A stretch of DNA of 64,000 nucleotides, taken from NCBI RefSeq assembly GCF_003991155.1, contig NZ_CP031293.1. One strand, written 5' to 3'. Below, one piece after another: positions 8,322 through 33,098 of the stretch. The stretch is from Escherichia coli. GTDB lineage: Bacteria > Pseudomonadota > Gammaproteobacteria > Enterobacterales > Enterobacteriaceae. Position 1 is the first letter of the stretch; each line of letters begins with the position of its first letter. A program made the position numbers and the translations under genes. The notes under the pieces are model-generated. The model was not told the DNA's origin, did not search any database, and was given only the letters and a program-made list of their open reading frames with translations.

Positions 8322-8336
8322 AGAACCACCTGACTA

Positions 8337-10817: not shown

Positions 10818-10832
10818 AGGCAGCTCCTGCAA

Positions 10833-11507
10833 TTAAATTTTGTCACTAATATAGTTGCCATGGTCATCGATAATGGTCAGATGCCAGTTATTCGCATTAT
10901 TACTTTTGACATTAATACTCTGACTTTCTAAGGGGGCAATCATAATAGTTTCATAATTGACTTTGACATTATTAGCTTTGACATCCGAAATCGTCACCCA
11001 ATTTGCTGAGTCATTTTTTATCACCAATCCATTGCCACTGCGATTTACCCGTAACTTTTTAAATGTCGCTTTATTTACCGGTGCAATACCCGCAGGCCGG
11101 TAAAACAATTTGATTCTGTTTTGCATTGCAAATTTCAGTGCATTCTTGCCCTCTTGCTCTGGACTATTTGGTGGAATATCCAGAACATTCAGATAAAAAA
11201 TGCTCTCTTTATTAGTGGGCAGTTTATTCGGCATAATTTTGATTTTTACTTGCTGCCCGGAATTTGCCCCTATTTTTGCCACTGGTGGCGTTAACATGAA
11301 AGGAACCTGAATTTTTTCTGGTGGTAACGACGTATCACCATCATCAATCCACGCCTGCAGCAGCGAAGAACGGTTTCCCTGATTCATCAACTGCACCATC
11401 ACTTCTTTATTTTCTGCCGGGTAAATAATACGCGTCCCGTAGATAACAATACCGGCATGTGCAGGAAGGACCATAGAAGAAATGAGTAAAGCAAATAATC
11501 CTTTCAT
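10833..11507 (-). CDS. yehC: Periplasmic fimbrial chaperone YehC
   Basis: 224 aa with signal peptide; PapD-like chaperone between major subunit and usher genes. Confidence 0.9.
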   Translation of the reverse strand: MKGLFALLISSMVLPAHAGIVIYGTRIIYPAENKEVMVQLMNQGNRSSLLQAWIDDGDTSLPPEKIQVPFMLTPPVAKIGANSGQQVKIKIMPNKLPTNKESIFYLNVLDIPPNSPEQEGKNALKFAMQNRIKLFYRPAGIAPVNKATFKKLRVNRSGNGLVIKNDSANWVTISDVKANNVKVNYETIMIAPLESQSINVKSNNANNWHLTIIDDHGNYISDKI

Positions 11508-11520
11508 CTTAATGCCTCTT

Positions 11521-11551
11521 AAATTAAAAGGCCGCCATGGGGATAGCGGCC
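11521..11551 (-). terminator. Intra-operon hairpin between yehD and yehC (attenuator)
   Basis: ggccgc / gcggcc stem at 11530-11551 followed on the minus strand by a T-rich run. Confidence 0.45.
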
Positions 11552-11587
11552 ATGTTTATTACCTGGAGAAACTTGAAATTTTATTTA

Positions 11588-12130
11588 TTAATCCTGCGCC
11601 ACACGCATAACCAGAGAAGATAACACATCACCTGATTGCACTGAATTATCTGTCAGCTTCAGGTATTTTGCTTTAAACGGAATAGCATATTGACCTTCCG
11701 CTGTTTTATAACTCTCAATGTTAAAAGGTGCAGAAACATCCAGGACATCGCTGTTATCACCTAAATAGAGATAGTACCCCACGGTATCGTTGCTACTGGC
11801 TATCGCCTTATCGTTTCCGGTTATTTTATCGTTGGTAATCAACGAGAGTTTTACACCAGCAACTTCTTTCGGACAGCTAATTTTTAACATGCTGCTGGTT
11901 ACACCGACTGCATCATCATAGGTCGAGTATTTAGCTTTACCTTCAAAGACAGTGGTTGGTACAGTTGGCATATTAATACTTACTGAATCGCCACCCGCTT
12001 CGAATTTACACGGAGATTCTGCAATATTCCCTTTAATGGTTAATGTTCCGGTATCAACGTCTGCGGCAAATACCCCAGCGCTCATAAAAAAAGAAGAAAA
12101 GACAGCGGCAGCAATAATTGAACGTTTCAT
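11588..12130 (-). CDS. yehD: Major fimbrial subunit YehD
   Basis: 180 aa, signal peptide; first gene of the operon, downstream of an AT-rich region. Confidence 0.9.
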   Translation of the reverse strand: MKRSIIAAAVFSSFFMSAGVFAADVDTGTLTIKGNIAESPCKFEAGGDSVSINMPTVPTTVFEGKAKYSTYDDAVGVTSSMLKISCPKEVAGVKLSLITNDKITGNDKAIASSNDTVGYYLYLGDNSDVLDVSAPFNIESYKTAEGQYAIPFKAKYLKLTDNSVQSGDVLSSLVMRVAQD

Positions 12131-16244: not shown

Positions 16245-16255
16245 TCTCCTTTCAA

Positions 16256-16283
16256 GGCGCTGTATCGACAGCGCCTTTTCTTT
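16256..16283 (+). terminator. Rho-independent terminator of metG
   Basis: ggcgctg / cagcgcc stem followed by ttttcttt. Confidence 0.7.
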
Positions 16284-16384
16284 ATAAATTCCTAAAGTTG
16301 TTTTCTTGCGATTTTGTCTCTCTCTAACCCGCATAAATACTGGTAGCATCTGCATTCAACTGGATAAAATTACAGGGATGCAGA

Positions 16385-19300
16385 ATGAGACACTTTATCT
16401 ATCAGGACAAAAAATCACATAAATTCTGGGCGGTGGAGCAGCAAGGCAACGAGTTACATATCAGTTGGGGCAAAGTCGGCACTAACGGGCAAAACCAGGT
16501 AAAAAGCTTTGCTGATGCTGCGGCAGCGGCAAAAGCGGAGCTTAAGCTGATCGCGGAGAAAACGAAAAAAGGCTATGTGGAAAATGCTTCAGCAAACGTG
16601 CATATCCCCCCCATCACCAAAGCCACTCCTGAAGTTAAAACTCCCCCTGTGAGTCAAAATAAACACCCATGGCTGGCTGATGATGCAGTCATTCCTGTCA
16701 CTGACGATATTAATCGATTTGCTTTTCCACATCGCTCTCGCCCCAGAGAGATCAATTATCTGCACAAAGATGGTCAAATATGGCAGCGCATTGCGAATAA
16801 CACCAGGGCATATGACCCCGACAATAATTACCGCTCTTATCCTGAAAACTGGCAGCAAGCGTTTGCCGAGTTACAAAGTCGAATTCTGGACAATCAACAA
16901 ACAGGGAGTGCGCAATCTGATGCGGCATTGCTCTGGAGTTTTTGGAACTCTTACTCTGCAGATGAACTGGTCGATGACTTAGTCATTCGCTGTGGTCTGG
17001 AAAGTGCCGTTGAAATCGCCCTTTTTGCTCTTCAACTCAAATATAAACCAGTAAAAGGCGCAGTCACCACCATCATTCCACCTGGTCACAAAGCAGAATC
17101 GCTACCGAGTTGGCATCAACGTCTATGTCATCATCTTTCACTCGCTTCAGAAGATGAGTGGCAACGCTGTGTGAATAAAGTGCTTACTGCTATTCCGACG
17201 CTATCCCCAGCACGGCAACCTTTTGCGGCGTTACTGCTCCCTGAACGCCCGGATATTGCCAATGCTATGGCTCTACGTTACGCAGACCAAAACGTTCCGG
17301 CGATGACCTGGTTAAGACTGGTAGTAACCGATGATGCCGCTCTGACTGCAGCAGAAAAATACGACTTCCCACCGTTATATCGTGATTTTCGCGCTTATCT
17401 GGCAATGTTGCTGGCAAATAATGGGGTGAGCGGTGTAAGCCGGATACTTACTGAGTTTGTGGAAGAGCATTCTGACAATCCCACTTATCTCTTCGAGCGC
17501 ATCAGCGAGACTGAAGATCTTGTCAAATGGTTATGGAAAACGAATCACCCGGATGCGATTCAAATTCTGATCCTCGGTGTAATTGGCAAGAAAAAGCACC
17601 TGGAATACTTAAGCAAAGCCTGTCAAAAACATCCCGCTGCGGCTATTGCCGCTTATGCAACTTTGCTGGCAATACATGAAGATGCACAGTGGCGCAACGC
17701 GCTTGTCAAACTGGTTACCGTCACGCCAGAGTTGGTATGTGACGTCATTCCCTGGGTTAATGCTAAAGCGGCAGGCATCTTATCTGAATGTCGTCCGCAG
17801 CCAGTAGCTGAAGAATGTGAATATGCCACTGTGGATATGTTGCCGGAGCTGTTTGTTTCGCCGCCCTGGATGACCAAAGAGAAAAAGAAAAATACGCCTG
17901 TGTTTGATCTTCCAGTGCTTCCAGTTCCTTCTGTTTCTGATGTCACTCCCGAGATTGCCAAAAGACTAACCCGTACTTACCTTGTCACCCGCTTCCAGCA
18001 AATAGCCCAACAGCAGGCGACAAAACAAACATTGTTTACCGACCTGCCGCCGATAAAAAAAGCAAGCTGGGAGAAACACTTAATACCGCTTACACCGGAG
18101 CAACAAATACTGTGGCATCTTGGTTTTGAAAAATGGCGGGAAAGCGGAGAAAAAATCTACGAAAAAATTCCGGCGCCACAAAGCGCCGTTGATGCCCTGC
18201 TACGCTTCGATTTTCCAGCACTCAATGCTGAATTTGTGCAATACCATAACAATGCATACAAAAGCTGGAATCTCATTGCCCTCTGTTACCTGCCTGGTCA
18301 ACAGGCCATTTCTTTTCTTAACCAGATAGTCAAAGAAGATAACTACTCTGATGAGGGAAATATTCTGGCAATTTTTGGTAGCGCCGCCATACCTGCATTT
18401 ATGACCTGCCTGCAACGTGATCCACGACGTCTGTGCTTCTTCCCCTTTTTCCTCGGTGTCAGTGACCTGGCCTTACCGATGGCGCAACAATTACAGAAAA
18501 AAATGTCTTATGACGATGCGCGAAACTGGCTGACTGATTACCCGCGCCATGCCGCCGCCGGACTGCTTCCTGTAGCACTGGGTAAACACTGCCAAAATCG
18601 GGAATATGCCCGCCAGGCGCTCCGCCTGCTGGTGAATTTAAACCAACGAGAAACGATTGAGGAAATCGCCCGGGGGTATAACCAACCAGATGTTTTAGCT
18701 GCGCTGGCAACATTGTTCGATAGCGACCCACTGGAAGAATATCCTGCAAAAATCGCCCCATTGCCCGGCTTTTATCAGTTCACCTTATGGCGCAGACCAC
18801 GGCTTAAAAGTAACAATCTGCCTCTGTCCGATGACGCTATGCGCCACCTGGGCACTATGTTGAGCTTCCCTCGCGACATTACCGCCTACGCTGGACTGGA
18901 TATCATTAGAGAAATCTTCACCCGGGAATCACTGGCTGACTTTGGCTGGGATCTCTACACGGCATGGATGGAATCTGGCGCGCCCGCAAAAGAAAACTGG
19001 GCATTTACCTCGCTGGGGATTTTAGGCAATAACGACACCGCGCGTAAACTAACCCCGCTTATCCGGGCCTGGCCGGGTGAATCCCAGCATAAACGCGCGG
19101 TTTCTGGGCTCGATGTGTTAGCCAGTATCGGTAGCGATATTGCGCTGATGCTGCTTAATGGCATTGCACAAAAAATTAAATTCAAAGCATTGCAGGAACA
19201 TGCCCGCGACAAAATCAATATGGTCGCCGAAAATCGCGGATTGACAATGGCCGAACTGGAAGACCGCCTGGCTCCAGATTTAGGGCTTGATATCAACGGC

Positions 19301-20185
19301 TCGCTGATACTTGATTTCGGCCCACGTCAATTCACCGTTGGTTTTGACGAAACCTTAAAACCTGTAGTGCGCGATGCAAACGGCAAGGTCCTGAAAGATT
19401 TACCCAAACCAAATCAGAGCGATGATAAAACACTGGCAACTGACGCCGTTAACCTCTTTAAACAATTGAAGAAAGATGTTCGTGCTATCGCCAGCCAGCA
19501 AATTACCCGTCTGGAACAGGCTATGTGCCAGCGCAGACGCTGGACGACAGAGCAGTTCCGCCTGTTCATGGTGGAGCACCCACTGGTACGTCACTTAACC
19601 CGACGACTGTTATGGGGGGTATATACTGAGGAAAACACGCTGATTGCCTGCTTCCGGGTCGCAGAAGACAGCACTTACAGCGATATGCAGGATGAGCTAT
19701 TCACGCTACCAGCAGGAAACATCGGTATTCCGCATATGCTGGAAATCCCCCCTGAATCTGCCGCTGCATTCAGGCAAATTTACGCTGATTACGAACTGCT
19801 CCCCCCCTTCCAACAGCTCGATCGTGGTAGTTATCGTCTTGCTGATAATGAACGGAATACCCACGAACTGACACGCTGGAGCGGACGCCTTTGCCAGGCA
19901 GGGCGCATTGTCGGGCTAGAGCGCCGAGGTTGGCAACGTCTGGAAGAAAGCGGCAGCGTCTATGCGATGCGCAAATCTACTCCTTATGGCGATCTCGAAC
20001 TTGAAACAGAACATTTTTCATTAATTTATGGCGAAACAGGTTATGGCGACCTGTTACCTGTTGAAAGCGTAAAAATCACCTCGCCAGATGATCGCTACGG
20101 TAAACAACCTTTACTTACTTTTTCCATGCTCGACGACATCACCGCCAGCGAGCTGATTAACGACATTGAATCATTGTTTGATTAA
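16385..20185 (+). CDS. molR: Large MolR-like protein, paralog 1 (N-terminal WGR-like domain, long C-terminal region)
   Basis: 1266 aa. N-terminus HKFWAVEQQGNELHISWGKVGTNGQ fits the WGR pattern; C-terminal half shares long near-identical segments with the next gene. Symbol assignment is tentative. Confidence 0.75.
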   Translation: MRHFIYQDKKSHKFWAVEQQGNELHISWGKVGTNGQNQVKSFADAAAAAKAELKLIAEKTKKGYVENASANVHIPPITKATPEVKTPPVSQNKHPWLADDAVIPVTDDINRFAFPHRSRPREINYLHKDGQIWQRIANNTRAYDPDNNYRSYPENWQQAFAELQSRILDNQQTGSAQSDAALLWSFWNSYSADELVDDLVIRCGLESAVEIALFALQLKYKPVKGAVTTIIPPGHKAESLPSWHQRLCHHLSLASEDEWQRCVNKVLTAIPTLSPARQPFAALLLPERPDIANAMALRYADQNVPAMTWLRLVVTDDAALTAAEKYDFPPLYRDFRAYLAMLLANNGVSGVSRILTEFVEEHSDNPTYLFERISETEDLVKWLWKTNHPDAIQILILGVIGKKKHLEYLSKACQKHPAAAIAAYATLLAIHEDAQWRNALVKLVTVTPELVCDVIPWVNAKAAGILSECRPQPVAEECEYATVDMLPELFVSPPWMTKEKKKNTPVFDLPVLPVPSVSDVTPEIAKRLTRTYLVTRFQQIAQQQATKQTLFTDLPPIKKASWEKHLIPLTPEQQILWHLGFEKWRESGEKIYEKIPAPQSAVDALLRFDFPALNAEFVQYHNNAYKSWNLIALCYLPGQQAISFLNQIVKEDNYSDEGNILAIFGSAAIPAFMTCLQRDPRRLCFFPFFLGVSDLALPMAQQLQKKMSYDDARNWLTDYPRHAAAGLLPVALGKHCQNREYARQALRLLVNLNQRETIEEIARGYNQPDVLAALATLFDSDPLEEYPAKIAPLPGFYQFTLWRRPRLKSNNLPLSDDAMRHLGTMLSFPRDITAYAGLDIIREIFTRESLADFGWDLYTAWMESGAPAKENWAFTSLGILGNNDTARKLTPLIRAWPGESQHKRAVSGLDVLASIGSDIALMLLNGIAQKIKFKALQEHARDKINMVAENRGLTMAELEDRLAPDLGLDINGSLILDFGPRQFTVGFDETLKPVVRDANGKVLKDLPKPNQSDDKTLATDAVNLFKQLKKDVRAIASQQITRLEQAMCQRRRWTTEQFRLFMVEHPLVRHLTRRLLWGVYTEENTLIACFRVAEDSTYSDMQDELFTLPAGNIGIPHMLEIPPESAAAFRQIYADYELLPPFQQLDRGSYRLADNERNTHELTRWSGRLCQAGRIVGLERRGWQRLEESGSVYAMRKSTPYGDLELETEHFSLIYGETGYGDLLPVESVKITSPDDRYGKQPLLTFSMLDDITASELINDIESLFD

Positions 20186-20197
20186 AAGGATTTAGCA

Positions 20198-23100
20198 ATG
20201 AAAACCTATATTTATCAGGACGAAAAATCACATAAATTCTGGGCAGTGGAGCAACAGGGAAACGAGCTGCATATTAGTTGGGGCAAAGTCAGTACCAACG
20301 GGCAAAGCCAGGTAAAAAGCTTTGCTGATGCTGCGGCGGCGGAAAAAGCGGAACTGAGGCTGATTGCGGAGAAGATGAAGAAGGGGTATGTGGAGCAAGC
20401 GAAGGATAATTCTTTGCAACCTTCCCAAACGGTAACGGATTCTCTCAAGGTAGCGGCCTTATCCACCATTATTCAGGAACAACCCTTTTGCGTAGCAGAA
20501 GCCCGTGTGGCTGACAAAAATACAGATGATGTTTTACCGTGGCTGGCGAAAGATATTGCTGTCGTTTTTCCGCCCGAAGTTGTACACACCACGTTAAGCC
20601 ATCGCCGCTTTCCCGGAGTTCCTGTTCAGCAAGCAGACAACTTGACCCAGTTACGTCGCTTAGCCTGTAGCGTGTCGCAACGGGATAATAAAACAGCCAC
20701 ATTTGACTTCAGCGCCTGTTCTTTAGTATGGCAAAACACCGTCGCCCAGGCGATCAGTCAGATCGACTGCCTGAAAACAACACAGTTACCATCACCAGTA
20801 ATGGCTGTACTCACGGCACTTGAAATGAAATGCACAAGATATAAAGTGCGTGAGGATGTTATGGATCAGATCATTCAGGAAGGCGGTCTGGAATATGCTA
20901 CTGATGTAATAATACACCTTCAACAGATTGATATTGAATGGAATTATGCGAATAATATCATTATTATTCTGCCGTCTGGCATTGCACCTGATAACTTGCA
21001 GCAATATTCCAGTTTTGAATTACGCCTACGGAAACATTTATCACTGGCGGAAGAGTCTCTCTGGCAAAAATGTGCACAAAAACTTATTGCCGCAATTCCA
21101 CATATTCCAGAATGGCGGCAACCATTAATTGCTTTGTTATTACCCGAAAAACCAGAAATTGCACATGAAATTGCCCAGCGTCTACTGGGGAAAAAAAAAT
21201 TACCCTCGCTTGAGTGGCTAAAAATAGTGGCGACTGATGAGCACATTCTTGCCTCATTAGAAAAATATCACGAGCCATATGCCATTTTTGATGATTACTA
21301 TTGTGGTGCGATATGGTCAGCCACCGTATTACAGGAGCAAGGTGTTGCAGCCCTGCCCCGATTTGCTCCCTATGCCGCAAGTGACTACTGCGCCGATGTG
21401 TTGCGTCATATCAATCATCCGTTCGCATTAACACTGCTTATACGTGTAGCCGGGCATACTAAACGCTGTCACGATCGAATGACGAAAGCCTGCGCTGCGT
21501 TCCCACACGCAGCACTGGCAGCACTGGCGGAACTTCTAGTGCAAAAAGAAGAGAATAGTTGGCGCATTATGCTAATGACGATGCTTATCTCGCAACCAGC
21601 ACTGGCAGAACAGGTCATTCCCTGGCTTTCGACACCCGCAGCTGCAGTGCTGAAATCATGCCAGCAACAACTGACACAGCCATCAAACCATGCCAGCACC
21701 GATCTACTGCCGGCCATAGTAGTCTCCCCACCATGGCTTTCGAAAAAGAAAAAATCGTCGATTCCGGTGCTTGATTTAGCACCATTAGGCATTGAGCCAA
21801 TCAGTTATCTGACAGAAGAAATCAGTAATCAACTTTTGGCGAAATATATCTGGTATTCAAAACACATCACGGTTAGTCATGAAGAAAGTACTGCCAATCT
21901 GTTGGCAAGGATGGGTTTTCAACGACGGATCGCTGGTACATATATTAAAGCTCCCGAAGCGGTAGTTGAGGCATGGCTAAATGAAGATTATTCAACCTTA
22001 ATAAGTGAATTTAAGGTGTTTCATTCACCTACCGGGCATTATTGGCATTTGGGGATTTTGACAACATTGCCGCTGGAGAAAGCAATAAGAGCATGGAATG
22101 CCCTTACTCTATCTCCGCATACCGATACCGAATACGCCATGTTACATTTTGGACTCAAAGGATTACCTGGGTTAGTAAACTCACTTGCACGTTATCCACA
22201 GGAAGCCTTGCCCATAACGAATTACTTCGCAGCGAGTGAGCTGGCTCCTGCCGTCGCCCGCGCCTTCAACAAACTCAAAACCCTACGACAAGACGCCCGC
22301 ACCTGGCTGCTGAAATACCCGGAACACGCCATTACCGGCCTGCTACCTTCGGCGCTCGGCAAAGCCGGTGAAGCACAGGATAACGCCCGCGCTGCCTTGC
22401 GTATGCTTATCGAAAACGATCATCAGCCATTACTGCAAGAAATCGCCCGGCGTTATAACCAGCCGGAAGTAACAGATGCGGTGAACGCTATGCTTGCGCT
22501 CGATCCCTTAGATAATCACCCGACAAAAATCCCCACTCTTCCGGCCTTTTATCAGCCATCGATCTGGACCCGCCCGGTATTAAAAGCAAATGCCCAATCA
22601 CTGCCAGATAACGCCCTCCTCCACCTCGGTGAAATGCTCCGCTTCCCTCAGGAAGAGGCTCTGTATCCGGGATTATTGCAGGTGAAAGATGCCTGTACCG
22701 CCGACTCACTGGCTGAATTTGCCTGGGATCTGTTTACCGCCTGGCAGACCGCTGGCGCACCGTCGAAAGAAAGTTGGGCGTTCACTGCGTTAGGCGTTCT
22801 CGGTAACGATGACACCGCCCGCAAACTGACGCCATTAATCCGCGCCTGGCCTGGCGAATCTCAGCATAAACGTGCCACCGTTGGGTTGGATATTCTCGCT
22901 GCTATCGGCAGCGATATCGCCCTGATGCAGCTTAACGGCATCGCCCAGAAACTGAAATTCAAAGCATTACAGGAGCGAGCAAAAGAAAAAATTGCCGACA
23001 TTGCCGAAAGCCGCGAACTCACAGTGGCAGAACTTGAAGATCGGTTAGCACCGGATCTCGGTCTGGATGATAACGGTTCGCTGCTGCTGGATTTCGGGCC

Positions 23101-23992
23101 ACGGCAGTTCACCGTCAGCTTTGATGAAACCTTAAAACCGTTTGTGCGTGATGCTTCCGGCAGCCGCCTGAAAGACTTGCCTAAACCGAACAAAAGCGAT
23201 GATGAAACCCAAGCGAACGATGCAGTTAACCGCTACAAACTGTTGAAAAAAGATGCGCGTACCGTTGCCGCCCAGCAGGTAGCAAGGCTGGAATCCGCCA
23301 TGTGCCTACGCCGCCGCTGGTCGCCGGAAAACTTCCAGCTATTCCTGGTTGAGCATCCGCTGGTTCGCCACTTAACCCGCCGTCTGATTTGGGGCGTTTA
23401 TAGCACCGAAAACGAGCTACTGGCCTGTTTCCGGGTGGCAGAAGATAACAGCTACAGCACCGCTGACGATGATCTTTTCACCCTGCCGGAAGGCGATATC
23501 TCTATTGGTATTCCTCACGTTCTGGAAATATCACCGACGGATGCCGCCGCCTTTGGTCAGCTTTTTGCCGACTACGAACTTTTACCGCCGTTCCGTCAGC
23601 TCGACCGCAACAGTTATGCCCTGACTGAAGTCGAACGCAACGCCAGCGAACTAACCCGCTGGGCAGGCAGAAAATGCCCGAGCGGTCGGGTTATGGGGCT
23701 GTCGAATAAAGGCTGGGTGCGTGGTGAACCGCAGGACGGTGGCTGGATCGGCTGGATGATCAAACCTCTGGGCCGCTGGTCATTAATCATGGAAATCGAT
23801 GAAGGATTTGCAGTTGGTATGTCGCCAGCCGAACTCAGTGCCGAGCAACTCTTAAGCAAGCTGTGGCTATGGGAAGGCAAAGCAGAAAGCTATGGCTGGG
23901 GGAGTCATTCAACACAGGAAGCGCAGTTCTCCGCACTCGATGACATCACCGCCAGCGAGTTGATTAACGATATTGAAGCCCTGTTTGAATAA
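20198..23992 (+). CDS. Large MolR-like protein, paralog 2 (N-terminal WGR-like domain)
   Basis: 1264 aa; same N-terminal and C-terminal sequence blocks as paralog 1, separated from it by only 12 bp. Confidence 0.75.
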   Translation: MKTYIYQDEKSHKFWAVEQQGNELHISWGKVSTNGQSQVKSFADAAAAEKAELRLIAEKMKKGYVEQAKDNSLQPSQTVTDSLKVAALSTIIQEQPFCVAEARVADKNTDDVLPWLAKDIAVVFPPEVVHTTLSHRRFPGVPVQQADNLTQLRRLACSVSQRDNKTATFDFSACSLVWQNTVAQAISQIDCLKTTQLPSPVMAVLTALEMKCTRYKVREDVMDQIIQEGGLEYATDVIIHLQQIDIEWNYANNIIIILPSGIAPDNLQQYSSFELRLRKHLSLAEESLWQKCAQKLIAAIPHIPEWRQPLIALLLPEKPEIAHEIAQRLLGKKKLPSLEWLKIVATDEHILASLEKYHEPYAIFDDYYCGAIWSATVLQEQGVAALPRFAPYAASDYCADVLRHINHPFALTLLIRVAGHTKRCHDRMTKACAAFPHAALAALAELLVQKEENSWRIMLMTMLISQPALAEQVIPWLSTPAAAVLKSCQQQLTQPSNHASTDLLPAIVVSPPWLSKKKKSSIPVLDLAPLGIEPISYLTEEISNQLLAKYIWYSKHITVSHEESTANLLARMGFQRRIAGTYIKAPEAVVEAWLNEDYSTLISEFKVFHSPTGHYWHLGILTTLPLEKAIRAWNALTLSPHTDTEYAMLHFGLKGLPGLVNSLARYPQEALPITNYFAASELAPAVARAFNKLKTLRQDARTWLLKYPEHAITGLLPSALGKAGEAQDNARAALRMLIENDHQPLLQEIARRYNQPEVTDAVNAMLALDPLDNHPTKIPTLPAFYQPSIWTRPVLKANAQSLPDNALLHLGEMLRFPQEEALYPGLLQVKDACTADSLAEFAWDLFTAWQTAGAPSKESWAFTALGVLGNDDTARKLTPLIRAWPGESQHKRATVGLDILAAIGSDIALMQLNGIAQKLKFKALQERAKEKIADIAESRELTVAELEDRLAPDLGLDDNGSLLLDFGPRQFTVSFDETLKPFVRDASGSRLKDLPKPNKSDDETQANDAVNRYKLLKKDARTVAAQQVARLESAMCLRRRWSPENFQLFLVEHPLVRHLTRRLIWGVYSTENELLACFRVAEDNSYSTADDDLFTLPEGDISIGIPHVLEISPTDAAAFGQLFADYELLPPFRQLDRNSYALTEVERNASELTRWAGRKCPSGRVMGLSNKGWVRGEPQDGGWIGWMIKPLGRWSLIMEIDEGFAVGMSPAELSAEQLLSKLWLWEGKAESYGWGSHSTQEAQFSALDDITASELINDIEALFE

Positions 23993-24001
23993 GGAAAGAA
24001 C

Positions 24002-27000
24002 ATGGACAAGGAATTACCGTGGCTGGCGGATAACGCCCAACTGGAACTGAAATATAAAAAAGGCAAAACACCACTCAGCCATCGCAATTGGCCGGGAGAA
24101 CCGGTGCCTGTTATCACTGAAAGCCTCATCCAGACACTGGGTGATAAATTGCTACACATTGCTGAGAAGAAAAAAAACATTGTCTGGCGTTATGAAAATT
24201 TTTCACTGGAATGGCAGTCCGCCATCACGCAGGCCATCAACTTGATCGGCGAGCACAAACCCTCAGTTCCGGCCCGGACAATGGCGGCGCTAGCCTGTAT
24301 CGCGCAAAATGACAGCCAACAGTTGCTCGACGAAATCGTCCAACAAGAGGGACTGGAATATGCGACTGAGGTGGTGATTGCACGCCAGTTTATTGCACAG
24401 TGTTATGAGAGTGATCCTCTGCTAGTGACATTGCAGTATCAGAACGAGGATTATGGCTATGGTTATCGCTCAGAAACCTATAACGAATTCGATCTCCGAC
24501 TGCGTAAGCATCTCTCTCTGGCAGAGGAAAGCTGCTGGCAGCGTTGCGCCGACAAACTCATTGCCGCACTGCCAGGACTACCCCAAGTTCGCCGTCCTTT
24601 TATTGCGCTGATCCTCCCGGAAAAACCAGAAATCGCCAATGAGTTGGTAGGCCTTGAATGCCCGTGGACTCATTTTCATTCTAAGGAGTGGTTAAAAGTT
24701 GTTGCTACTGACCACAGGGCAGTGGGAAAACTCGAACGCTACTGGAGCCAGGATATATTTAGCGATCGCGAAGCCAGCTACATGTCGCATGAAAACCACT
24801 TCGGCTACGCGGCCTGCGCCGCCCTTTTGCGCGAACAAGGAATTGCAGCCGTTCCACGCCTCGCGATGTATGCCCATAAAGAAGATTGCGGCAGTCTGCT
24901 GGTACAAATTAACCATCCGCAGGTCATCCGTACCCTGCTGTTAGTTGCTGATAAAAATAAACCCAGCCTGCAACGTGTGGCTAAATACAGTAAAAACTTC
25001 CCCCATGCGACGCTTGCCGCACTGGCAGAGCTTCTGGCGTTAAAAGAACCGCCTGCACGCCCTGGTTATCCAATCATCGAAGACAAAAAGCTGCCTGCAC
25101 AGCAAAAAGCTCGAGATGAATACTGGCGTACGCTGTTACAAACGCTGATGGCATCGCAGCCACAACTGGCAGAAGAGGTGATGCCGTGGTTAAGTACTCA
25201 AGCCCAGGCAGTGCTGAATAGTTATTTATCGGCACCGCCCAAAACGGTTATTGATAGCACCGATAACATCCAAATGCCTGAAATCCTCGTTTCACCACCG
25301 TGGCGTAGTAAGAAAAAAATGACAGTTCCACGTCTTGATTTGGCACCGTTCGAATTAACGCCGCAAGTTTACTGGCAACCAGGCGAACGAGAGAGGCTTG
25401 CCGCCACTGAGTCTGCCCGTTATTTCAGCACGGAATCTCTTGCGGAACGCATGGAACAAAAAAGTGGACGAGTTGTATTACAGGAGCTGGGTTTTGGAGA
25501 TGATGTATGGCTGTTTTTGAATTATATACTCCCCGGAAAACTGGATGCTGCACGCAATTCACTCATTGTTCAGTGGCATTACTACCCAGGGCGGGTTGAA
25601 GAGATCATGAATGGCTGGAGCTCCCCGGAAGCTCAATTAGCAGAACAGGCGCTTCGCAACGGTCACGTAGAAGTGTTAATTAACATATGGGAAAATGACA
25701 GCTACTCACGCTATCGTCGGGAAAAGAGTATCTGGAACCTGTATTTATTGGCGCAGTTGCCGCGTGAGATGGCTTTGACTTTCTGGCTACGTATCAATGA
25801 GAAAAAGCATCTGTCTGCGGGTGAGGACTATTTTCTCAGTATCTTCGGATTGGATGCTCTACCAGGTCTGCTGTTGGCTTTTTCACATCGTCCAAAAGAA
25901 ACATTTCCATTAATTTTAAATTTCGGCGCAACAGAACTGGCCCTGCCCGTTGCCCGCGTCTGGCGACGTTTCGCGGCGCAGCGTGATCTGGCTCGCCAGT
26001 GGATTTTACATTGGCCGGAACATACAGCTACTGCACTTATCCCTCTTGTCTTCACCAAATCCAGCGATAATAGCGAAGCTGCATTACTTGCCCTGCGTTT
26101 ACTTTACGAACAGGGACATGGCGAATTACTGCAAACCGTGGCAAACCGCTGGCAGCATACAGATGTATGGCCTGCCCTGGAGCAATTACTTAAACAGGGT
26201 CCAATGGACATTTACCCGGCACGCATTCCCAAAGCCCCTGATTTCTGGCATCCGACAATGTGGTCCAGACCGAGACTTATCACGAATAATCAGCCTGTTA
26301 CCGATGATGCTCTGGAAATTATCGGCGACATGCTGCGCTTTACCCAGGGCGGACGTTTTTATTGCGGGCTGGAACAACTGAAAACGTTCTGCCAGCCACA
26401 AACGCTGGCAGCTTTTGCCTGGGATCTCTTCACCGCGTGGCAACAAGTTGGCGCCCCCGCAAAAGACAACTGGGCATTTCTGGCGTTAAGTCTCTTCGGT
26501 GACGAAAGCACGGCTCGGGATCTGACAACACAGATCCTCGCCTGGCCACAGGAAGGCAAATCTGCCCGTGCCGTCAGTGGCCTGAACATACTTACTCAGA
26601 TGAATAATGATATGGCGCTGATACAGCTGCATCATATATCGCAACGGGCGAAATCCCGCCCCTTACGTGATAACGCGGCGGAATTTCTTCAGGTGGTCGC
26701 AGAAAATCGTAGGCTAAGCCAGGAACAGTTAGCGGACAGATTAGTCCCAACACTGGGTCTTGATGATCCGCAGGCGTTGAGTTTTGATTTTGGTCCACGG
26801 CAATTTACCGTTCGCTTTGATGAAAACCTTAACCCGGTTATCTTTGATCAGCAAAACGTTCGCCAGAAAAGCGTTCCCCGGTTGCGCGCCGATGACGATC
26901 AACTGAAAGCGCCCGAGGCACTGGCCCGACTAAAAGGGCTAAAAAAAGATGCGACTCAGGTGAGCAAAAACCTGCTCCCGCGTCTTGAAACGGCCCTACG

Positions 27001-27634
27001 CACCACCCGACGCTGGTCGCTGGCAGATTTTCATACTCTGTTTGTTAATCATCCCTTTACCCGCCTGGTTACTCAGCGATTAATATGGGGCGTGTATCCG
27101 GCAAATGAACCGCGTCGTTTACTCAACGCCTTTCGTGTGGCCGCAGAGGGGGAGTTCTGCAATGCACAAGATGAGCCCATTGACCTGCCTGCGGATGCTT
27201 TGATTGGCATTGCCCACCCGTTAGAAATGACAGCAGAAATGCGCAGTGAATTTGCACAGCTTTTTGCCGATTACGAAATTATGCCGCCTTTTCGCCAGTT
27301 GACGAGGCGCACAGTGCTGCTCACGCCTGACGAGTCAGCCAGTAACAGCCTGACTCGCTGGGAAGGTAAATCCGCTACCGTTGGGCAACTTATGGGAATG
27401 CGATACAAAGGCTGGGAGTCAGGCTATGAGGACGCATTTGTCTATGACCTGGGCGAGTACCGGCTGGTCCTTAAGTTTTCATCCGGTTTTAACCACTACA
27501 ATGTTGATAGCAAAGCGCTAATGAGCTTCCGTTCTCTTCATGTATACCGTGACAATAAATCTGTCACTTTTGCCGAACTTGATGTGTTTGATTTGAGTGA
27601 AGCGTTAAGCGCACCCGACGTCATTTTCCATTAA
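24002..27634 (+). CDS. yehI: Large YehI protein (shares the C-terminal region of the two upstream paralogs, lacks the WGR-like N-terminus)
   Basis: 1210 aa; shared blocks such as DLFTAWQ..GAPAKDNWAF and FGPRQFTV; 9 bp downstream of paralog 2. Confidence 0.85.
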   Translation: MDKELPWLADNAQLELKYKKGKTPLSHRNWPGEPVPVITESLIQTLGDKLLHIAEKKKNIVWRYENFSLEWQSAITQAINLIGEHKPSVPARTMAALACIAQNDSQQLLDEIVQQEGLEYATEVVIARQFIAQCYESDPLLVTLQYQNEDYGYGYRSETYNEFDLRLRKHLSLAEESCWQRCADKLIAALPGLPQVRRPFIALILPEKPEIANELVGLECPWTHFHSKEWLKVVATDHRAVGKLERYWSQDIFSDREASYMSHENHFGYAACAALLREQGIAAVPRLAMYAHKEDCGSLLVQINHPQVIRTLLLVADKNKPSLQRVAKYSKNFPHATLAALAELLALKEPPARPGYPIIEDKKLPAQQKARDEYWRTLLQTLMASQPQLAEEVMPWLSTQAQAVLNSYLSAPPKTVIDSTDNIQMPEILVSPPWRSKKKMTVPRLDLAPFELTPQVYWQPGERERLAATESARYFSTESLAERMEQKSGRVVLQELGFGDDVWLFLNYILPGKLDAARNSLIVQWHYYPGRVEEIMNGWSSPEAQLAEQALRNGHVEVLINIWENDSYSRYRREKSIWNLYLLAQLPREMALTFWLRINEKKHLSAGEDYFLSIFGLDALPGLLLAFSHRPKETFPLILNFGATELALPVARVWRRFAAQRDLARQWILHWPEHTATALIPLVFTKSSDNSEAALLALRLLYEQGHGELLQTVANRWQHTDVWPALEQLLKQGPMDIYPARIPKAPDFWHPTMWSRPRLITNNQPVTDDALEIIGDMLRFTQGGRFYCGLEQLKTFCQPQTLAAFAWDLFTAWQQVGAPAKDNWAFLALSLFGDESTARDLTTQILAWPQEGKSARAVSGLNILTQMNNDMALIQLHHISQRAKSRPLRDNAAEFLQVVAENRRLSQEQLADRLVPTLGLDDPQALSFDFGPRQFTVRFDENLNPVIFDQQNVRQKSVPRLRADDDQLKAPEALARLKGLKKDATQVSKNLLPRLETALRTTRRWSLADFHTLFVNHPFTRLVTQRLIWGVYPANEPRRLLNAFRVAAEGEFCNAQDEPIDLPADALIGIAHPLEMTAEMRSEFAQLFADYEIMPPFRQLTRRTVLLTPDESASNSLTRWEGKSATVGQLMGMRYKGWESGYEDAFVYDLGEYRLVLKFSSGFNHYNVDSKALMSFRSLHVYRDNKSVTFAELDVFDLSEALSAPDVIFH

Positions 27635-27694
27635 ACCACAGCGGGCAGTGATGCGACTGCCCGTTATTAACACGACCTGCCACCGGGAAAAGCG

Positions 27695-28015
27695 ATGATC
27701 GTGCAAAAAGAGCTGGTCGCTATTTATGATTATGAAGTCCCTGTACCTGAAGATCCGTTTTCCTTCAGACTTGAGATCCATAAATGCTCTGAATTATTTA
27801 CAGGTTCCATCTACCGGCTGGAGCGATTCCGGCTACATCCAACATTTCATCAACGTGATCGAGAGGATATCGACCCGCTAATAAATGATGCGTTGATTTA
27901 TATAAGAGATGAGTTTATTGATGAGCGAAAATTACGGGGCGAATCACCAGAAATGGTAATAGCCATTTTTAATCGTGAACTACAGAATATATTCAACCAA
28001 GAAATAGAAAAATAG
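27695..28015 (+). CDS. yehK: Small protein YehK
   Basis: 106 aa ORF directly after yehI. Confidence 0.8.
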   Translation: MIVQKELVAIYDYEVPVPEDPFSFRLEIHKCSELFTGSIYRLERFRLHPTFHQRDREDIDPLINDALIYIRDEFIDERKLRGESPEMVIAIFNRELQNIFNQEIEK

Positions 28016-28453
28016 CTTTATTAAAGAGGGAGACGGTATTCCCCCTTAGATGCGTTTCAATTTGCCCGTTACTTCAACAAATCAATCAACCGTAACAGAG
28101 CCACTAATAACTCCAGTACGGCAATGAGCACAGTTAACTTTTGTGTCAGCGTGTCCATCCGCTCTCCTTATTAAGGAGCGCAACACCAGCACCTTACCCT
28201 TACACTGCCTGTCGATACTGGTTTACGTATGTTGGACCACGATGTTGCACTCCGGATCAGGGCACTACCTGCGGCACCACCCGTCCGGTAGCCATGACTT
28301 GAAATGGGTTCGATCCGGCGCAACGTCCCAACAGTCAGGATTATAAATCTCATTATCTTAATTGCAACGGGGTCCACCGATGGTTATAATTCGTTCGTTG
28401 GAACACGATGTTGCACAGGCTGCGGCGTTGGGCCTGAAAATAGTAAATAAAAG

Positions 28454-28481
28454 AACCTGCCTCACCAGCAGGTTTTTTTAT
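28454..28481 (+). terminator. Rho-independent terminator in the yehK-yehL intergenic region
   Basis: aacctgc / gcaggtt stem, ctcacca loop, then tttttta. Confidence 0.55.
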
Positions 28482-28590: not shown

Positions 28591-29679
28591 ATGTCACCGC
28601 AGAATAATCATCTGCAGCGTCCGCCTGCCGCTGTGTTATACGCCGATGAACTGGCAAAATTAAAACAAAATGATCACGCACCTTGCCCGCCCGGTTGGCA
28701 GTTAAGTTTGCCTGCGGCCCGTGCTTTTATCCTTGGCGACGAAGCGCAAAATATTAGCCGTAAAGTCGTGATCAGTCCCTCCGCTGTCGAACGCATGTTA
28801 GTCACTCTCGCTACCGGGCGCGGTTTGATGTTGGTGGGGGAACCTGGCACCGCAAAATCGCTCCTGTCTGAATTACTGGCAACCGCTATTAGCGGCGATG
28901 CCGGGTTAACCATCCAGGGCGGCGCATCTACCACCGAAGATCAAATCAAGTACGGCTGGAACTACGCTCTGCTTATCAATCATGGTCCATCAACGGAAGC
29001 GCTGGTCCCTGCCCCGCTTTACCAGGGAATGCGCGACGGCAAAATCGTCCGTTTTGAAGAAATAACGCGTACACCGCTGGAAGTGCAGGACTGTCTGTTA
29101 GGTATGCTTTCTGACAGGGTGATGACGGTGCCGGAACTCACCGGTGAAGCCAGTCAGCTCTATGCGCGGGAAGGCTTTAATATTATTGCCACTGCCAATA
29201 CCCGCGATCGCGGCGTCAATGAAATGAGTGCTGCGCTAAAGCGTCGTTTCGATTTTGAAACTGTCTTTCCGATTATGGATTTCGCTCAGGAGCTGGAGCT
29301 TGTCGCCAGTGCTTCGGCGCGTTTGCTGGCCCATAGCGGTATTCCGCATAAAGTGCCTGACGCGGTACTGGAGTTACTGGTCCGCACCTTCCGCGATCTG
29401 CGTGCCAACGGCGAAAAGAAAACGTCAATGGATACACTAACAGCGATTATGTCCACCGCTGAAGCCGTGAACGTGGCCCACGCTGTGGGCGTCCGCGCCT
29501 GGTTTTTAGCGAATCGCGCAGGTGAGCCAGCCGATCTGGTGGACTGTATTGCCGGAACCATCGTCAAAGATAACGAAGAAGATCGCGCTCGTCTGCGCCG
29601 TTACTTCGAACAGCGAGTCGCCACACATAAAGAAGCTCACTGGCAGGCTTATTATCAAGCCCGCCACCGCCTGCCGTGA
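28591..29679 (+). CDS. yehL: MoxR-like AAA+ ATPase YehL
   Basis: Start trimmed to MSPQNNH, 362 aa; Walker A GEPGTAKS. Confidence 0.9.
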   Translation: MSPQNNHLQRPPAAVLYADELAKLKQNDHAPCPPGWQLSLPAARAFILGDEAQNISRKVVISPSAVERMLVTLATGRGLMLVGEPGTAKSLLSELLATAISGDAGLTIQGGASTTEDQIKYGWNYALLINHGPSTEALVPAPLYQGMRDGKIVRFEEITRTPLEVQDCLLGMLSDRVMTVPELTGEASQLYAREGFNIIATANTRDRGVNEMSAALKRRFDFETVFPIMDFAQELELVASASARLLAHSGIPHKVPDAVLELLVRTFRDLRANGEKKTSMDTLTAIMSTAEAVNVAHAVGVRAWFLANRAGEPADLVDCIAGTIVKDNEEDRARLRRYFEQRVATHKEAHWQAYYQARHRLP

Positions 29680-29689
29680 GGAAAGATGC

Positions 29690-31969
29690 ATGAGCGAGCC
29701 GTTAATTGTCGGCATCCGGCATCATAGCCCGGCCTGCGCCCGGCTGGTGAAATCGTTAATCGAAAGCCAGCGGCCACGATACGTGTTGATTGAAGGCCCG
29801 GCTGATTTTAATGACCGGGTAGACGAACTGTTTTTAGCCCACCAGCTTCCGGTAGCTATTTACAGTTATTGCCAGTATCAGGACGGTACGGCCCCCGGGC
29901 GCGGTGCCTGGACGCCATTTGCTGAATTTTCACCGGAGTGGCAGGCGCTACAAGCCGCACGTCGTATTCAGGCACAAACTTACTTCATCGATTTACCTTG
30001 CTGGGCGCAGAGTGAAGAAGATGACGATTCGCCTGATACGCAAGAGGAAAGCCAGACCTTGCTGCTGCGTGCCACCCGCATGGATAACAGCGACACCCTG
30101 TGGGATCACTTGTTCGAAGATGAAAGCCAGCAAACTGCATTACCCTCTGCGCTGGCGCACTATTTTGCACAACTGCGGGGCGATTCCCCCGGAGATGCTC
30201 TCAATCGTCAGCGCGAAGCCTTTATGGCCCGCTGGATTGCATGGGCGATGCAGCAAAACAATGGCGACGTGTTAGTCGTCTGCGGCGGCTGGCATGCTCC
30301 GGCACTGGCAAAGATGTGGCGCGAATACACGCAGGAAATTAACACGCCGGAATTGCCCTCGCTGGCAGATGTCGTTACAGGTTGTTATCTCACCCCCTAC
30401 AGTGAAAAGCGCCTTGATGTGCTGGCAGGATACCTTTCCGGTATGCCTGCCCCGGTCTGGCAAAACTGGTGCTGGCGGTGGGGCTTGCAGCAGGCAGGTG
30501 AACAACTGCTGAAAACGGTTCTTACCCGTTTGCGCCAGCACCACTTGCCTGCTTCAACAGCGGATATGGCTGCCGCTCATCTGCATGCGATGGCACTGGC
30601 ACAGTTGCGCGGTCATACACTACCGTTACGCACTGACTGGCTGGATGCCATAGCAGGCTCGCTGATTAAAGAAGCCCTGAATGCGCCGTTGCCGTGGAGC
30701 TATCGCGGCGTTATTCATCCCGATACCGATCCGATTCTGCTAACGTTGATAGACACATTAGCGGGTGACGGATTCGGTAAACTTGCCCCTTCTACGCCAC
30801 AACCGCCTCTGCCAAAAGATGTCACCTGCGAACTGGAACGTACCGCAATCTCTCTTCCGGCGGAGCTTACCTTAAATCGCTTTAACCCCAATGGACTAGC
30901 GCAAAGTCAGGTGTTACATCGGCTGGCAATACTGGAGATCCCAGGGATTGTACGCCAGCAGGGAAGCACACTGACACTTGCAGGCAACGGTGAAGAACGC
31001 TGGAAATTAACCCGCCCGCTTAGCCAGCATGCGGCATTGATTGAGGCCGCCTGCTTTGGTGCAACACTCCAGGAAGCCGCACGCCATAAATTAGAAGCCG
31101 ATATGCTGGACGCGGGTGGAATCGGCAGTATCACCACATGTCTTAGCCAGGCGGCGTTAGCGGGTCTGGCGTCCTTCAGTCAGCAATTACTGGAACAACT
31201 CACATTATTAATCGCCCAAGAAAATCAGTTTGCCGAAATGGGCCAGGCGCTGGAAGTGCTTTACGCCTTGTGGCAGCTCGATGAAATCAGCGGTATGCAA
31301 GGCGCGCAGATATTACAAACGACGTTATGCGCGGCTATCGATCGCACGCTGTGGCTGTGTGAATCTAACGGCAGACCGGATGAAAAGGAGTTTCACGCTC
31401 ACCTGCATAGCTGGCAAGCGCTTTGCCATATCCTGCGCGATCTACATAGCGGCGTTAATTTACCCGGCGTTTCTCTTTCTGCGGCGGTAGCCTTACTGGA
31501 GCGACGCAGTCAGGCGATTCATGCCCCGGCGCTGGATCGCGGCGCGGCTCTTGGCGCACTAATGCGTCTGGAACATCCCAACGCCAGTGCCGAAGCGGCG
31601 CTGACGATGCTGGCGCAGTTATCCCCGGCACAATCCGGCGAGGCGCTGCACGGTTTGCTGGCGCTGGCCCGCCATCAACTGGCCTGTCAGCTGGCATTTA
31701 TCGCCGGTTTCAGTAGTCATTTAAATCAACTGAGTGACGACGATTTTATTAACGCCCTGCCCGATTTACGCGCGGCGATGGCCTGGCTACCACCACGAGA
31801 ACGCGGGACGCTGGCGCATCAGGTGCTTGAGCATTACCAGCTCGCACAGCTTCCCATTTCAGCGCTGCAAATGCCGTTGCATTGTCCACCGCAAGCCATT
31901 GCACATCATCAACAACTCGAACAGCAGGCACTGGCATCGCTGCAACACTGGGGAGTTTTCCATGTCTGA
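29690..31969 (+). CDS. yehM: Large uncharacterised protein YehM
   Basis: Start trimmed to MSEPLIVGIRHHSPA, 759 aa; begins 11 bp after the yehL stop. Confidence 0.85.
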   Translation: MSEPLIVGIRHHSPACARLVKSLIESQRPRYVLIEGPADFNDRVDELFLAHQLPVAIYSYCQYQDGTAPGRGAWTPFAEFSPEWQALQAARRIQAQTYFIDLPCWAQSEEDDDSPDTQEESQTLLLRATRMDNSDTLWDHLFEDESQQTALPSALAHYFAQLRGDSPGDALNRQREAFMARWIAWAMQQNNGDVLVVCGGWHAPALAKMWREYTQEINTPELPSLADVVTGCYLTPYSEKRLDVLAGYLSGMPAPVWQNWCWRWGLQQAGEQLLKTVLTRLRQHHLPASTADMAAAHLHAMALAQLRGHTLPLRTDWLDAIAGSLIKEALNAPLPWSYRGVIHPDTDPILLTLIDTLAGDGFGKLAPSTPQPPLPKDVTCELERTAISLPAELTLNRFNPNGLAQSQVLHRLAILEIPGIVRQQGSTLTLAGNGEERWKLTRPLSQHAALIEAACFGATLQEAARHKLEADMLDAGGIGSITTCLSQAALAGLASFSQQLLEQLTLLIAQENQFAEMGQALEVLYALWQLDEISGMQGAQILQTTLCAAIDRTLWLCESNGRPDEKEFHAHLHSWQALCHILRDLHSGVNLPGVSLSAAVALLERRSQAIHAPALDRGAALGALMRLEHPNASAEAALTMLAQLSPAQSGEALHGLLALARHQLACQLAFIAGFSSHLNQLSDDDFINALPDLRAAMAWLPPRERGTLAHQVLEHYQLAQLPISALQMPLHCPPQAIAHHQQLEQQALASLQHWGVFHV

Positions 31970-33098
31970 ACTGAACGATCTTCTGACCACCTGTGAGCTA
32001 CAACGCTGGCGATTAATTCTTGGCGAAGCGGCAGAAACGACCCTTTGTGGGCTGGATGACAATGCCCGGCAGATAGACCACGCGCTGGAGTGGCTGTATG
32101 GGCGCGATCCTGAACGGCTCCAGCGTGGTGAACGCTCTGGTGGATTAGGTGGCTCAAATCTCACCACCCCTGAGTGGATCAACAGTATTCACACACTGTT
32201 TCCGCAACAGGTGATTGAGCGACTGGAAAGCGATGCCGTACTGCGCTACGGCATTGAAGATGTGGTGACGAATCTCGACGTACTGGAACGTATGCAGCCT
32301 TCTGAAAGCCTGCTACGCGCCGTTTTGCACACCAAACATCTGATGAATCCCGAAGTACTGGCTGCCGCCCGCCAGATAGTGCGCCAGGTTGTTGAAGAAA
32401 TTATGGCTCGACTGGCAAAGGAAGTTCGTCAGGCTTTTTCTGGTGTCCGCGATCGCCGTCGCCGCTCATTTATTCCACTGGCGCGAAACTTTGATTTCAA
32501 AAGTACTCTGCGCGCCAACCTGCAACACTGGCACCCGCAACACGGCAAGTTGTATATCGAATCCCCCCGCTTTAACAGCCGCATTAAACGCCAAAGCGAA
32601 CAATGGCAACTGGTCTTACTGGTTGATCAAAGCGGATCAATGGTGGACTCGGTGATCCACTCCGCAGTGATGGCGGCCTGTTTATGGCAGTTACCCGGTA
32701 TTCGTACCCATCTGGTGGCGTTTGACACCAGCGTCGTCGATCTCACGGCAGACGTTGCTGATCCGGTAGAATTATTAATGAAAGTGCAATTAGGCGGCGG
32801 GACCAATATCGCCAGTGCTGTGGAATATGGTCGGCAACTTATTGAACAACCAGCGAAAAGCGTCATCATCCTCGTGAGCGATTTTTATGAAGGGGGTTCA
32901 TCATCATTGCTGACGCATCAGGTGAAAAAGTGTGTCCAGAGCGGCATCAAAGTGCTGGGGCTGGCAGCGCTCGACAGCACCGCAACGCCTTGCTATGACC
33001 GCGATATGGCCCAGGCGCTGGTTAATGTTGGCGCACAAATAGCCGCAATGACACCGGGTGAACTGGCTACCTGGCTTGCGGAGAATTTGCAGTCATGA
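31962..33098 (+). CDS. yehP: von Willebrand factor A domain protein YehP
   Basis: Start trimmed to MSELNDLL, 378 aa; MIDAS motif DQSGS; start overlaps the yehM stop by 8 nt. Confidence 0.9.
   Translation: MSELNDLLTTCELQRWRLILGEAAETTLCGLDDNARQIDHALEWLYGRDPERLQRGERSGGLGGSNLTTPEWINSIHTLFPQQVIERLESDAVLRYGIEDVVTNLDVLERMQPSESLLRAVLHTKHLMNPEVLAAARQIVRQVVEEIMARLAKEVRQAFSGVRDRRRRSFIPLARNFDFKSTLRANLQHWHPQHGKLYIESPRFNSRIKRQSEQWQLVLLVDQSGSMVDSVIHSAVMAACLWQLPGIRTHLVAFDTSVVDLTADVADPVELLMKVQLGGGTNIASAVEYGRQLIEQPAKSVIILVSDFYEGGSSSLLTHQVKKCVQSGIKVLGLAALDSTATPCYDRDMAQALVNVGAQIAAMTPGELATWLAENLQS

Follow-up and report, generated by a model that had tools for sequence, protein, structure and literature searches.

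Ancient tandem WGR/DUF4132 paralogs of Escherichia coli and the phylogenetically widespread module that they share with yehLMPQ

The molR (yehH) and yehI genes of Escherichia coli K-12 are the closest described relatives of the genes analysed here. The stretch of DNA under study (the window; 64,000 nucleotides of E. coli contig NZ_CP031293.1, assembly GCF_003991155.1) carries three large genes in tandem, denoted g1, g2 and g3 (g3 being yehI), which are followed by yehK and yehLMPQ. g2 and g3 are the orthologs of K-12 molR and yehI and have the same domains, and RefSeq names them either 'DUF4132 domain-containing protein' or 'WGR and DUF4132 domain-containing protein'. The window strain keeps an extra ancestral gene, g1, and has all three genes intact, whereas K-12 molR is a frameshifted g1/g2 chimera. 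The genes, their domains and the YehL subfamily of MoxR ATPases are already known from databases and the literature.

Several other systems share parts with this locus. The MoxR/vWA chaperone pairs (RavA-ViaA, CoxD-CoxE, NorQ-NorD and CbbQ-CbbO) resemble it in that YehL, an AAA_5 MoxR protein, and YehP, a CoxE-type vWA protein, are encoded together, but the yeh module always adds a DUF5682 protein, a double-SWIM protein and at least one WGR-DUF4132 protein. The vWA-MoxR ternary conflict systems, the source of the Pfam family bpMoxR, likewise combine a MoxR and vWA core with variable partners. However, the bpMoxR match in YehL (E 0.0024; faint or weak in homologs) is below significance, and the yeh module has no beta-propeller, no recognised effector domains and no PADLOC model. 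The WGR domain of g1 is the same Pfam domain as that of the PARPs and of the bacterial WGR protein PDB 2ra8. In PARPs it binds nucleic acid, DNA ends or breaks (PMC7824862). g1 and g2 differ from PARPs in lacking the catalytic domain, and their WGR is fused to about 1200 residues of helical repeats plus DUF4132. The same families occur in the radiation-desiccation regulon of Deinococcus radiodurans, controlled by DdrO and IrrE, in DRA0165-DRA0166 (DUF4132) and DR2173 (WGR); DRA0166 and DR2173 are DdrO targets induced by mitomycin C in an IrrE-dependent manner (PMC8533742). This damage induction parallels the LexA-type box found before g1, although Deinococcus uses another repressor system and has WGR and DUF4132 on separate proteins. 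Finally, the TraB/ChaN/erythromycin-esterase (Ere)/HopBA1 fold is relevant to YehM only; the likeness is a predicted one of fold, with no sequence-level match, and YehM also bears a long C-terminal helical-repeat region.

Taken as a whole, the explanation that we favour, with some reservation, is that g1, g2 and g3 are ancient paralogs within a conserved module in which the DUF4132 proteins would act as damage-induced adaptors.

Homology and age of the three paralogs

The three genes are arranged head to tail on the plus strand, with spacers of 12 bp (g1/g2) and 9 bp (g2/g3), each of which contains a Shine-Dalgarno-like AAGGA or GGAAAG. No terminator was found between them by the terminator scan. 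They form one translationally coupled unit behind the LexA-type box. The encoded proteins showed BLASTP identities of 44% (g1/g2), 38% (g2/g3) and 33% (g1/g3) over near full length, with E values from 0 to 1e-170. A DUF4132 domain (PF13569) was found near the C-terminus of all three (E 5.5e-51 in g1, 2.3e-50 in g2 and 4.5e-47 in yehI), each match spanning positions 1–179 or 3–179 of the 179 positions of the model. g1, g2 and g3 are true paralogs of one catalogued DUF4132 family.

The WGR domain (PF05406) was identified by Pfam at residues 5–69 of g1 (E 1.8e-18), and residues 2–68 of g1 match PDB 2ra8_A (E 5.6e-17). For g2 the evidence is of another kind: its residues 1–78 match the same NCBIfam N-terminal segment as g1 and our purpose-built WGR profile, and over the first 66 residues it shares about 88% identity with g1. 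The sequence HKFWAVEQQGNELHISWGKV is present in both proteins. An initial annotation, made from the sequence alone, had described three tandem paralogous genes, the first two with a WGR-like N-terminus, and our domain searches, which returned both the WGR domain and the shared DUF4132, agree with it. Its statement that g1 and g2 have near-identical C-terminal blocks was too strong, as the protein identity of the block is 66–84% and its DNA identity about 70%, and only the last ~18 residues are nearly identical (53 nt, 89%). At the other end, the first 197 nt of the two genes are 86% identical. The third gene, yehI, does lack a WGR domain, by Pfam and by our own profile, and its start corresponds to residue ~95–110 of g1 and g2; its homology had been confined to the C-terminal region in that description, but it extends along the entire length of the protein. 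Sequence searches of the PDB with g1, a YehM profile and a YehQ profile gave the WGR match only, and PADLOC and NCBIfam offered no informative family for any component of the cluster. The chromosome of E. coli 2016C-3878 (NZ_CP029747) matches the window at 100% identity and has the same three coding sequences in its RefSeq annotation. Every gene of the cluster is intact in the window.

Our analysis showed that synonymous sites are saturated along all three gene pairs (proportion of synonymous differences, pS, 0.65–0.8), including the conserved g1/g2 C-terminal block. This indicates that the similarity in that block reflects purifying selection and not recent conversion. The exception is codons 1–50 of g1/g2 (pS 0.40), and the low synonymous divergence expected of recent duplicates was not seen outside them. 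Overall DNA identity among the three genes is about 55%. In a neighbour-joining tree of ~750 conserved columns, each E. coli copy pairs with the Klebsiella oxytoca copy in the same relative position (g1 with copy 1, g2 with copy 2 and yehI with the WGR-less copy 3), with bootstrap support of 100 each. The Klebsiella triplet lies directly downstream of apbC-metG, which is the same metG-linked position as in Escherichia. Since each copy has its own Klebsiella ortholog at the same locus, the triplication predates the Escherichia-Klebsiella split. The three-gene state is ancestral, and the paralogs are ancient and vertically inherited.

Exact g1/g2 matches of at least 22 nt are restricted to one of 22 nt (nt 26–47) and one of 30 nt (nt 111–140), both in the WGR-coding segment. 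These two alone have the length needed for RecA-type recombination, and the longest match elsewhere is 18 nt. The earlier suggestion that some 11 kb of paralogous DNA invites gene conversion thus holds for the first ~200 nt, and possibly for the last 53 nt, but not for most of the length, where identity is low and pS saturated. The tandem layout and the similar ends of g1 and g2 could be taken as signs of recent tandem duplication followed by homogenising gene conversion, or of an assembly duplication artefact, but the chance of this is negligible: the saturated synonymous sites at ~55% overall identity and the separate Klebsiella ortholog of each copy rule out recent duplication or conversion across the whole 11 kb, and the presence of g1 in 1643 independent complete genomes rules out an artefact.

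The conserved module and its components

DUF4132 genes abut genes for AAA_5, DUF5682, VWA_CoxE and a 620–745-aa protein in all four distant Pfam-labelled loci (from Hydrogenophaga, Cystobacter, Burkholderia and an acidobacterium). A scan of species-representative genomes gave 68 loci, which were annotated with our own profiles; 40 of them had at least 3 kb of flank on both sides and were evaluable. The core block, consisting of a MoxR ATPase, DUF5682, a CoxE-type vWA protein and the double-SWIM protein, adjoins DUF4132 genes in 33 of these 40, and this synteny covers Proteobacteria, Myxococcota, Acidobacteriota and Actinobacteria. The usual order is (WGR-DUF4132)n-YehL-YehM-YehP-YehQ, with two permuted variants. 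A functional link between the DUF4132 genes and the MoxR-VWA cluster, which the initial annotation had proposed from their position, is predicted from this conserved synteny and strongly supported by it.

The DUF4132 gene is the only component that varies in number, with one copy in 47 loci, two to four in 16 and six to eight in five Massilia loci. Copies without WGR recur in several lineages. The family counts 8055 representatives at 50% clustering, and about 50 residues are invariant across phyla in its alignment. The module is phylogenetically widespread; in it the DUF4132 genes form the part that multiplies and diverges fast, and YehL, YehM, YehP and YehQ the invariant part. Tandem arrays of at least six to eight WGR-DUF4132 genes were seen in Massilia spp. 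(loci L039, L040, L043, L044, L052 and L058); some of these arrays end in a YehLMPQ block, and extra solo copies occur elsewhere in the same genomes.

The features of the locus are listed in Table 1. YehL is the type member of a recognised MoxR subfamily (PMC3893208). In the N-terminal domain of YehM, H11, E35 and H202 are invariant, and this DUF5682 protein, from a family that Pfam lists as of unknown function, is a candidate hydrolase. Literature searches found no paper on DUF5682, and only unrelated papers on WGR, SWIM and MoxR together. The two SWIM motifs of YehQ (CxCx5CxH; C70-x-C72-x5-C78-x-H80 and C166-x-C168-x5-C174-x-H176) are invariant or nearly so in an alignment of 22 homologs. 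No yehK homolog was found outside Escherichia by hidden Markov model or tblastn searches of 68+ loci. The zor/orz type I toxin-antitoxin locus between yehK and yehL has been described by Fozo et al. 2010 and is absent from K-12 (PMC2887945). An intergenic H-NS site is known before yehL, and yehL and yehM are derepressed in hns/stpA mutants. The yehI-yehK gap contains an 8-bp GC-rich hairpin (GCGGGCAGT...ACTGCCCG) at 27642–27663, terminator-like on the minus strand and lacking a T-tract on the plus strand, which might be an attenuator or an RNA-stability element.

Table 1. Features of the DUF4132-yehLMPQ locus, in window coordinates.
Feature	Position	Strand	Description
metG intrinsic terminator	16254..16277	+	10-bp stem and T-tract (terminator scan); upstream edge of the DUF4132 transcription unit
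LexA-type SOS box	16360..16375		CTGGATAAAATTACAG; ends 10 nt before the g1 ATG
g1	16385..20185	+	1266 aa, WP_001215675; WGR, variable helical region, DUF4132
g1, WGR	16397-16591		
g1, Pfam DUF4132	19382-19933		
g2	20198..23992	+	1264 aa, WP_061092861; WGR, helical region, DUF4132; ortholog of K-12 molR/yehH
g2, Pfam DUF4132	23159-23716		
g3 (yehI)	24002..27634	+	1210 aa, WP_000356813; DUF4132, without WGR
g3 (yehI), Pfam DUF4132	26861-27415		
yehK	27695..28015	+	106 aa, no known domain; Escherichia only among examined loci
ZorO-type type I toxin open reading frame	28069..28158	-	29 aa, MDTLTQKLTVLIAVLELLVALLRLIDLLK; independent module interrupting the yehK-yehL gap
OrzO-P antitoxin small RNA	28404..28479	+	Rfam RF02083, 102.8 bits against a gathering score of 60
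yehL	28591..29679	+	MoxR-type AAA+ ATPase, AAA_5 Pfam E 2.6e-34; Walker A GEPGTAKS, Walker B-like IVRFEE
yehM	29690..31969	+	DUF5682; predicted N-terminal TraB/ChaN/HopBA1/erythromycin-esterase-like fold; C-terminal helical repeat
yehP	31962..33098	+	CoxE-type vWA, VWA_CoxE Pfam E 5.5e-72; MIDAS DQSGS at residue 222
yehQ	33095..35095	+	two SWIM zinc-finger motifs; RefSeq annotation

Loss of g1, the molR chimera and variation in E. coli

g2 was found in 5390 of 5426 complete E. coli genomes and g1 in 1643, about 70% of the genomes being without g1. The copy-number change that had been anticipated for this region is thus a real polymorphism, but it is a loss of the ancient paralog g1 and not an increase by duplication. 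The K-12 molR pseudogene is 94.4% identical to g2 at the nucleotide level over its full length, and K-12 yehI is 94.6% identical to g3. K-12 molR retains the upstream region of g1 (100% identical) and the start codons of g1 (MRHF...), and the change to g2-type bases falls between nt ~70 and ~168. The same type of chimera was present in four further two-gene strains from different sources (A21, AHS8C65RI, 19AR1724 and SL112), which with K-12 make up the five two-gene strains examined. The two-gene state is a chimera of g1 promoter, g1 start and g2 body that arose by homologous recombination between the ~200-nt 5' repeats. In these strains the ~200-nt WGR-coding segment is a patchwork of g1 and g2 states, which suggests that conversion is confined to this segment.

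The DH5a annotation records a frameshift and an internal stop in K-12 molR, in agreement with the statement in the initial annotation that this gene is an interrupted pseudogene. Intact copies, however, are less notable than was supposed there, since the chimeric reading frame is intact in the other four of the five two-gene strains, and all three genes are intact in three of the four other three-gene strains fetched. Besides the frameshift and stop, the DH5a chimera has R in place of W in HKFW, a conserved motif of the WGR domain (HKFRAVEQQ; locus nt ~3425).

Compared with other E. coli strains, g1, g2 and g3 showed DNA identities of 88–96%, and yehLMPQ of 95–97% (yehQ down to 93–95%). In the same strains metG was 96–98% identical, and yehR, yehS and btsR were 98.6–99.8% identical. 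The ratio of nonsynonymous to synonymous divergence (dN/dS) was 0.15–0.22 for g1, g2 and g3, and at most 0.1 for metG, yehL and btsR. g2 exists in deeply divergent forms. Between the window and an ST131-like strain, dS is saturated over the first ~700 codons with a dN of 0.24–0.47, while the dN of the last ~560 codons is 0.004–0.04. About a quarter of the genomes match the g2 query only in part, at the sensitivity of megablast. A borrowing of the ST131-like N-terminus from g1 or g3 was ruled out, as it is 59% identical to the window g2 and only 32–35% identical to the paralogs.

Pseudogenes were seen in O157:H7 (g1, g2 and yehM), strain 163 (yehL and yehM), ST131-like strains and A21 (yehK) and K-12 (molR). 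The DUF4132 region has been disrupted repeatedly: the insertion sequence IS1203 lies in g1 of O157:H7 G5295, and stop and frameshift mutations occur in g1, g2 and yehM of O157:H7 TX 265-1. Sublineage L1a of ST131 has the blaCTX-M-15 transposon TnMB1860 inserted in this region (PMC9334617). Elsewhere in the window, the yehABCD fimbrial genes (~8300–12100) are 80–88% identical to those of O157:H7 and 96–100% identical to those of three other strains, a pattern that suggests allelic replacement of this operon in the O157 lineage.

DNA damage and possible functions of the module

The box before g1 matches CTGTATATATATACAG at 12 of 16 positions, with an AT-rich core and the CTG-N10-CAG pattern. K. 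oxytoca has a homologous box, CTGGATAAAAACACAG, at −24 relative to its first WGR gene, and no other box in the 1.24 Mb of fetched loci reaches 12 of 16 matches. In one review, molR figures among the LexA-regulated genes for which an SOS box is known (PMC6590174). The two-gene chimera keeps the g1 promoter region, and LexA-type control would therefore be preserved there. The cluster seems to be switched on by DNA damage. The CTG-N10-CAG pattern itself occurs 38 times in the whole window against 13.6 expected from dinucleotide-preserving shuffles (none of 100 reaching 38); this excess is probably due to the use of CTG and CAG codons rather than to LexA sites.

A mechanism can be proposed on this basis, in which the DUF4132 proteins would be non-enzymatic scaffold or adaptor proteins. 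DNA damage would relieve LexA repression and allow these proteins to be made. Their WGR domains, and probably also the SWIM fingers of YehQ, would engage DNA or a nucleoprotein target, while the conserved C-terminal ~450 residues would dock onto the vWA-MoxR machine. This machine might then spend ATP on remodelling the bound target or on activating the hydrolase-like subunit YehM. The variable N-terminal and middle regions would set target specificity, which would explain the multiplication of paralogs and the deep allelic lineages. In its most specific form, the yeh cluster would be a DNA-damage-induced machine. Its WGR-DUF4132 adaptors, interchangeable and both multiplied and diversified from strain to strain and species to species, would act with the double-SWIM protein to bring a MoxR/vWA remodeller and a hydrolase of the TraB/esterase-like type to their targets, which would be lesions in DNA, stalled nucleoprotein complexes or invading DNA. 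We put this form forward tentatively and regard it as doubtful. If true, it would represent a new class of SOS-linked system for maintaining or defending the genome.

Several observations weigh against a conserved, damage-induced module. Six Massilia loci and one Archangium contig carry DUF4132 genes without a nearby core block. In Erwinia, Serratia, Burkholderia, Comamonadaceae and Xanthomonadales no E. coli-type LexA box precedes the cluster, so that damage control is not universal; the scan used the E. coli-type motif, and the LexA motifs of Alphaproteobacteria, Actinobacteria, Myxococcota and Xanthomonadales differ from it. The K-12 molR promoter has a further activator, BglJ-RcsB (PMC3950696). 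The module of E. coli is split into two halves by yehK, the ZorO/OrzO locus and the H-NS-silenced yehL promoter region, and for this reason simple co-transcription of the triplet with yehLMPQ is unlikely. All parts of the cluster often carry pseudogenes, so many strains can do without the system. Docking to the vWA/MoxR proteins, DNA binding by WGR and SWIM and hydrolase activity of YehM are all inferred.

Another reading, compatible with damage induction, sees in the module a conflict system directed against phages or mobile elements, with the DUF4132 paralogs as diversifying sensors, MoxR-vWA as the switch and YehM as the effector. It would account for the deep allelic lineages and elevated dN/dS of g1–g3, the presence/absence polymorphism and scattered pseudogenes, the lineage-specific arrays of up to at least eight paralogs and the patchy distribution across phyla; the silencing of yehLM by H-NS, the weak bpMoxR match in YehL and its homologs and the toxin-type neighbours at some loci (CDI/DUF596 and RHS) also fit it. 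However, PADLOC-DB 2.0 gave no match for g1, g2, yehI or yehK/L/M/P/Q at E <= 0.01, homologs of the cluster were found in none of 50,697 phage records and in 33 of 72,556 plasmid records, and the chromosomal site has been fixed since the Escherichia-Klebsiella ancestor. With a dN/dS well under 1 and no recognised nuclease, TIR or pore effector in addition, we consider this reading unlikely.

That the genes are decaying relics without current function, kept by chance, is improbable. The frequent pseudogenes in g1, g2, yehK, yehL and yehM of various strains, the insertion sequence and transposon insertions (the latter from PMC9334617) and the H-NS silencing would be expected of such relics, but not the intact frames of more than 1200 codons in the window strain and many others, the purifying selection indicated by a dN/dS of 0.15–0.22, the ~50 residues invariant across phyla or the synteny kept in 33 of 40 loci. 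A role in molybdate or metal-cofactor regulation is very improbable. It comes from the historical name MolR (Lee et al. 1990), from the membership of YehP in the VWA_CoxE family and from the analogy with CoxD (MoxR) and CoxE (vWA), which mature the Mo-Cu centre of CO dehydrogenase, as MoxR-vWA pairs often mature metalloenzymes (PMC3893208). The K-12 gene so named is, however, a frameshifted chimera, no molybdenum genes lie among the neighbours of the cluster in the four Pfam-labelled loci, the molybdenum genes of Deinococcus are not co-regulated with its DUF4132 and WGR genes (PMC8533742), and WGR and SWIM point to nucleic acids and not to metals.

The reading of g1, g2 and g3 as ancient paralogs in a conserved, possibly damage-induced module brings a group of functionally uncharacterised E. 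coli genes into one coherent frame, as a cross-phylum module with a single expandable component. In this frame, the history of the 'molR pseudogene' is that of a recombinant chimera left after the loss of an ancestral paralog. Control by DNA damage is a testable lead, given the conserved LexA-type box and the independent data from Deinococcus. K-12, which lacks g1 and has a broken chimeric g2, is ill-suited for studying this system, whereas strains like that of the window carry all of its components intact.

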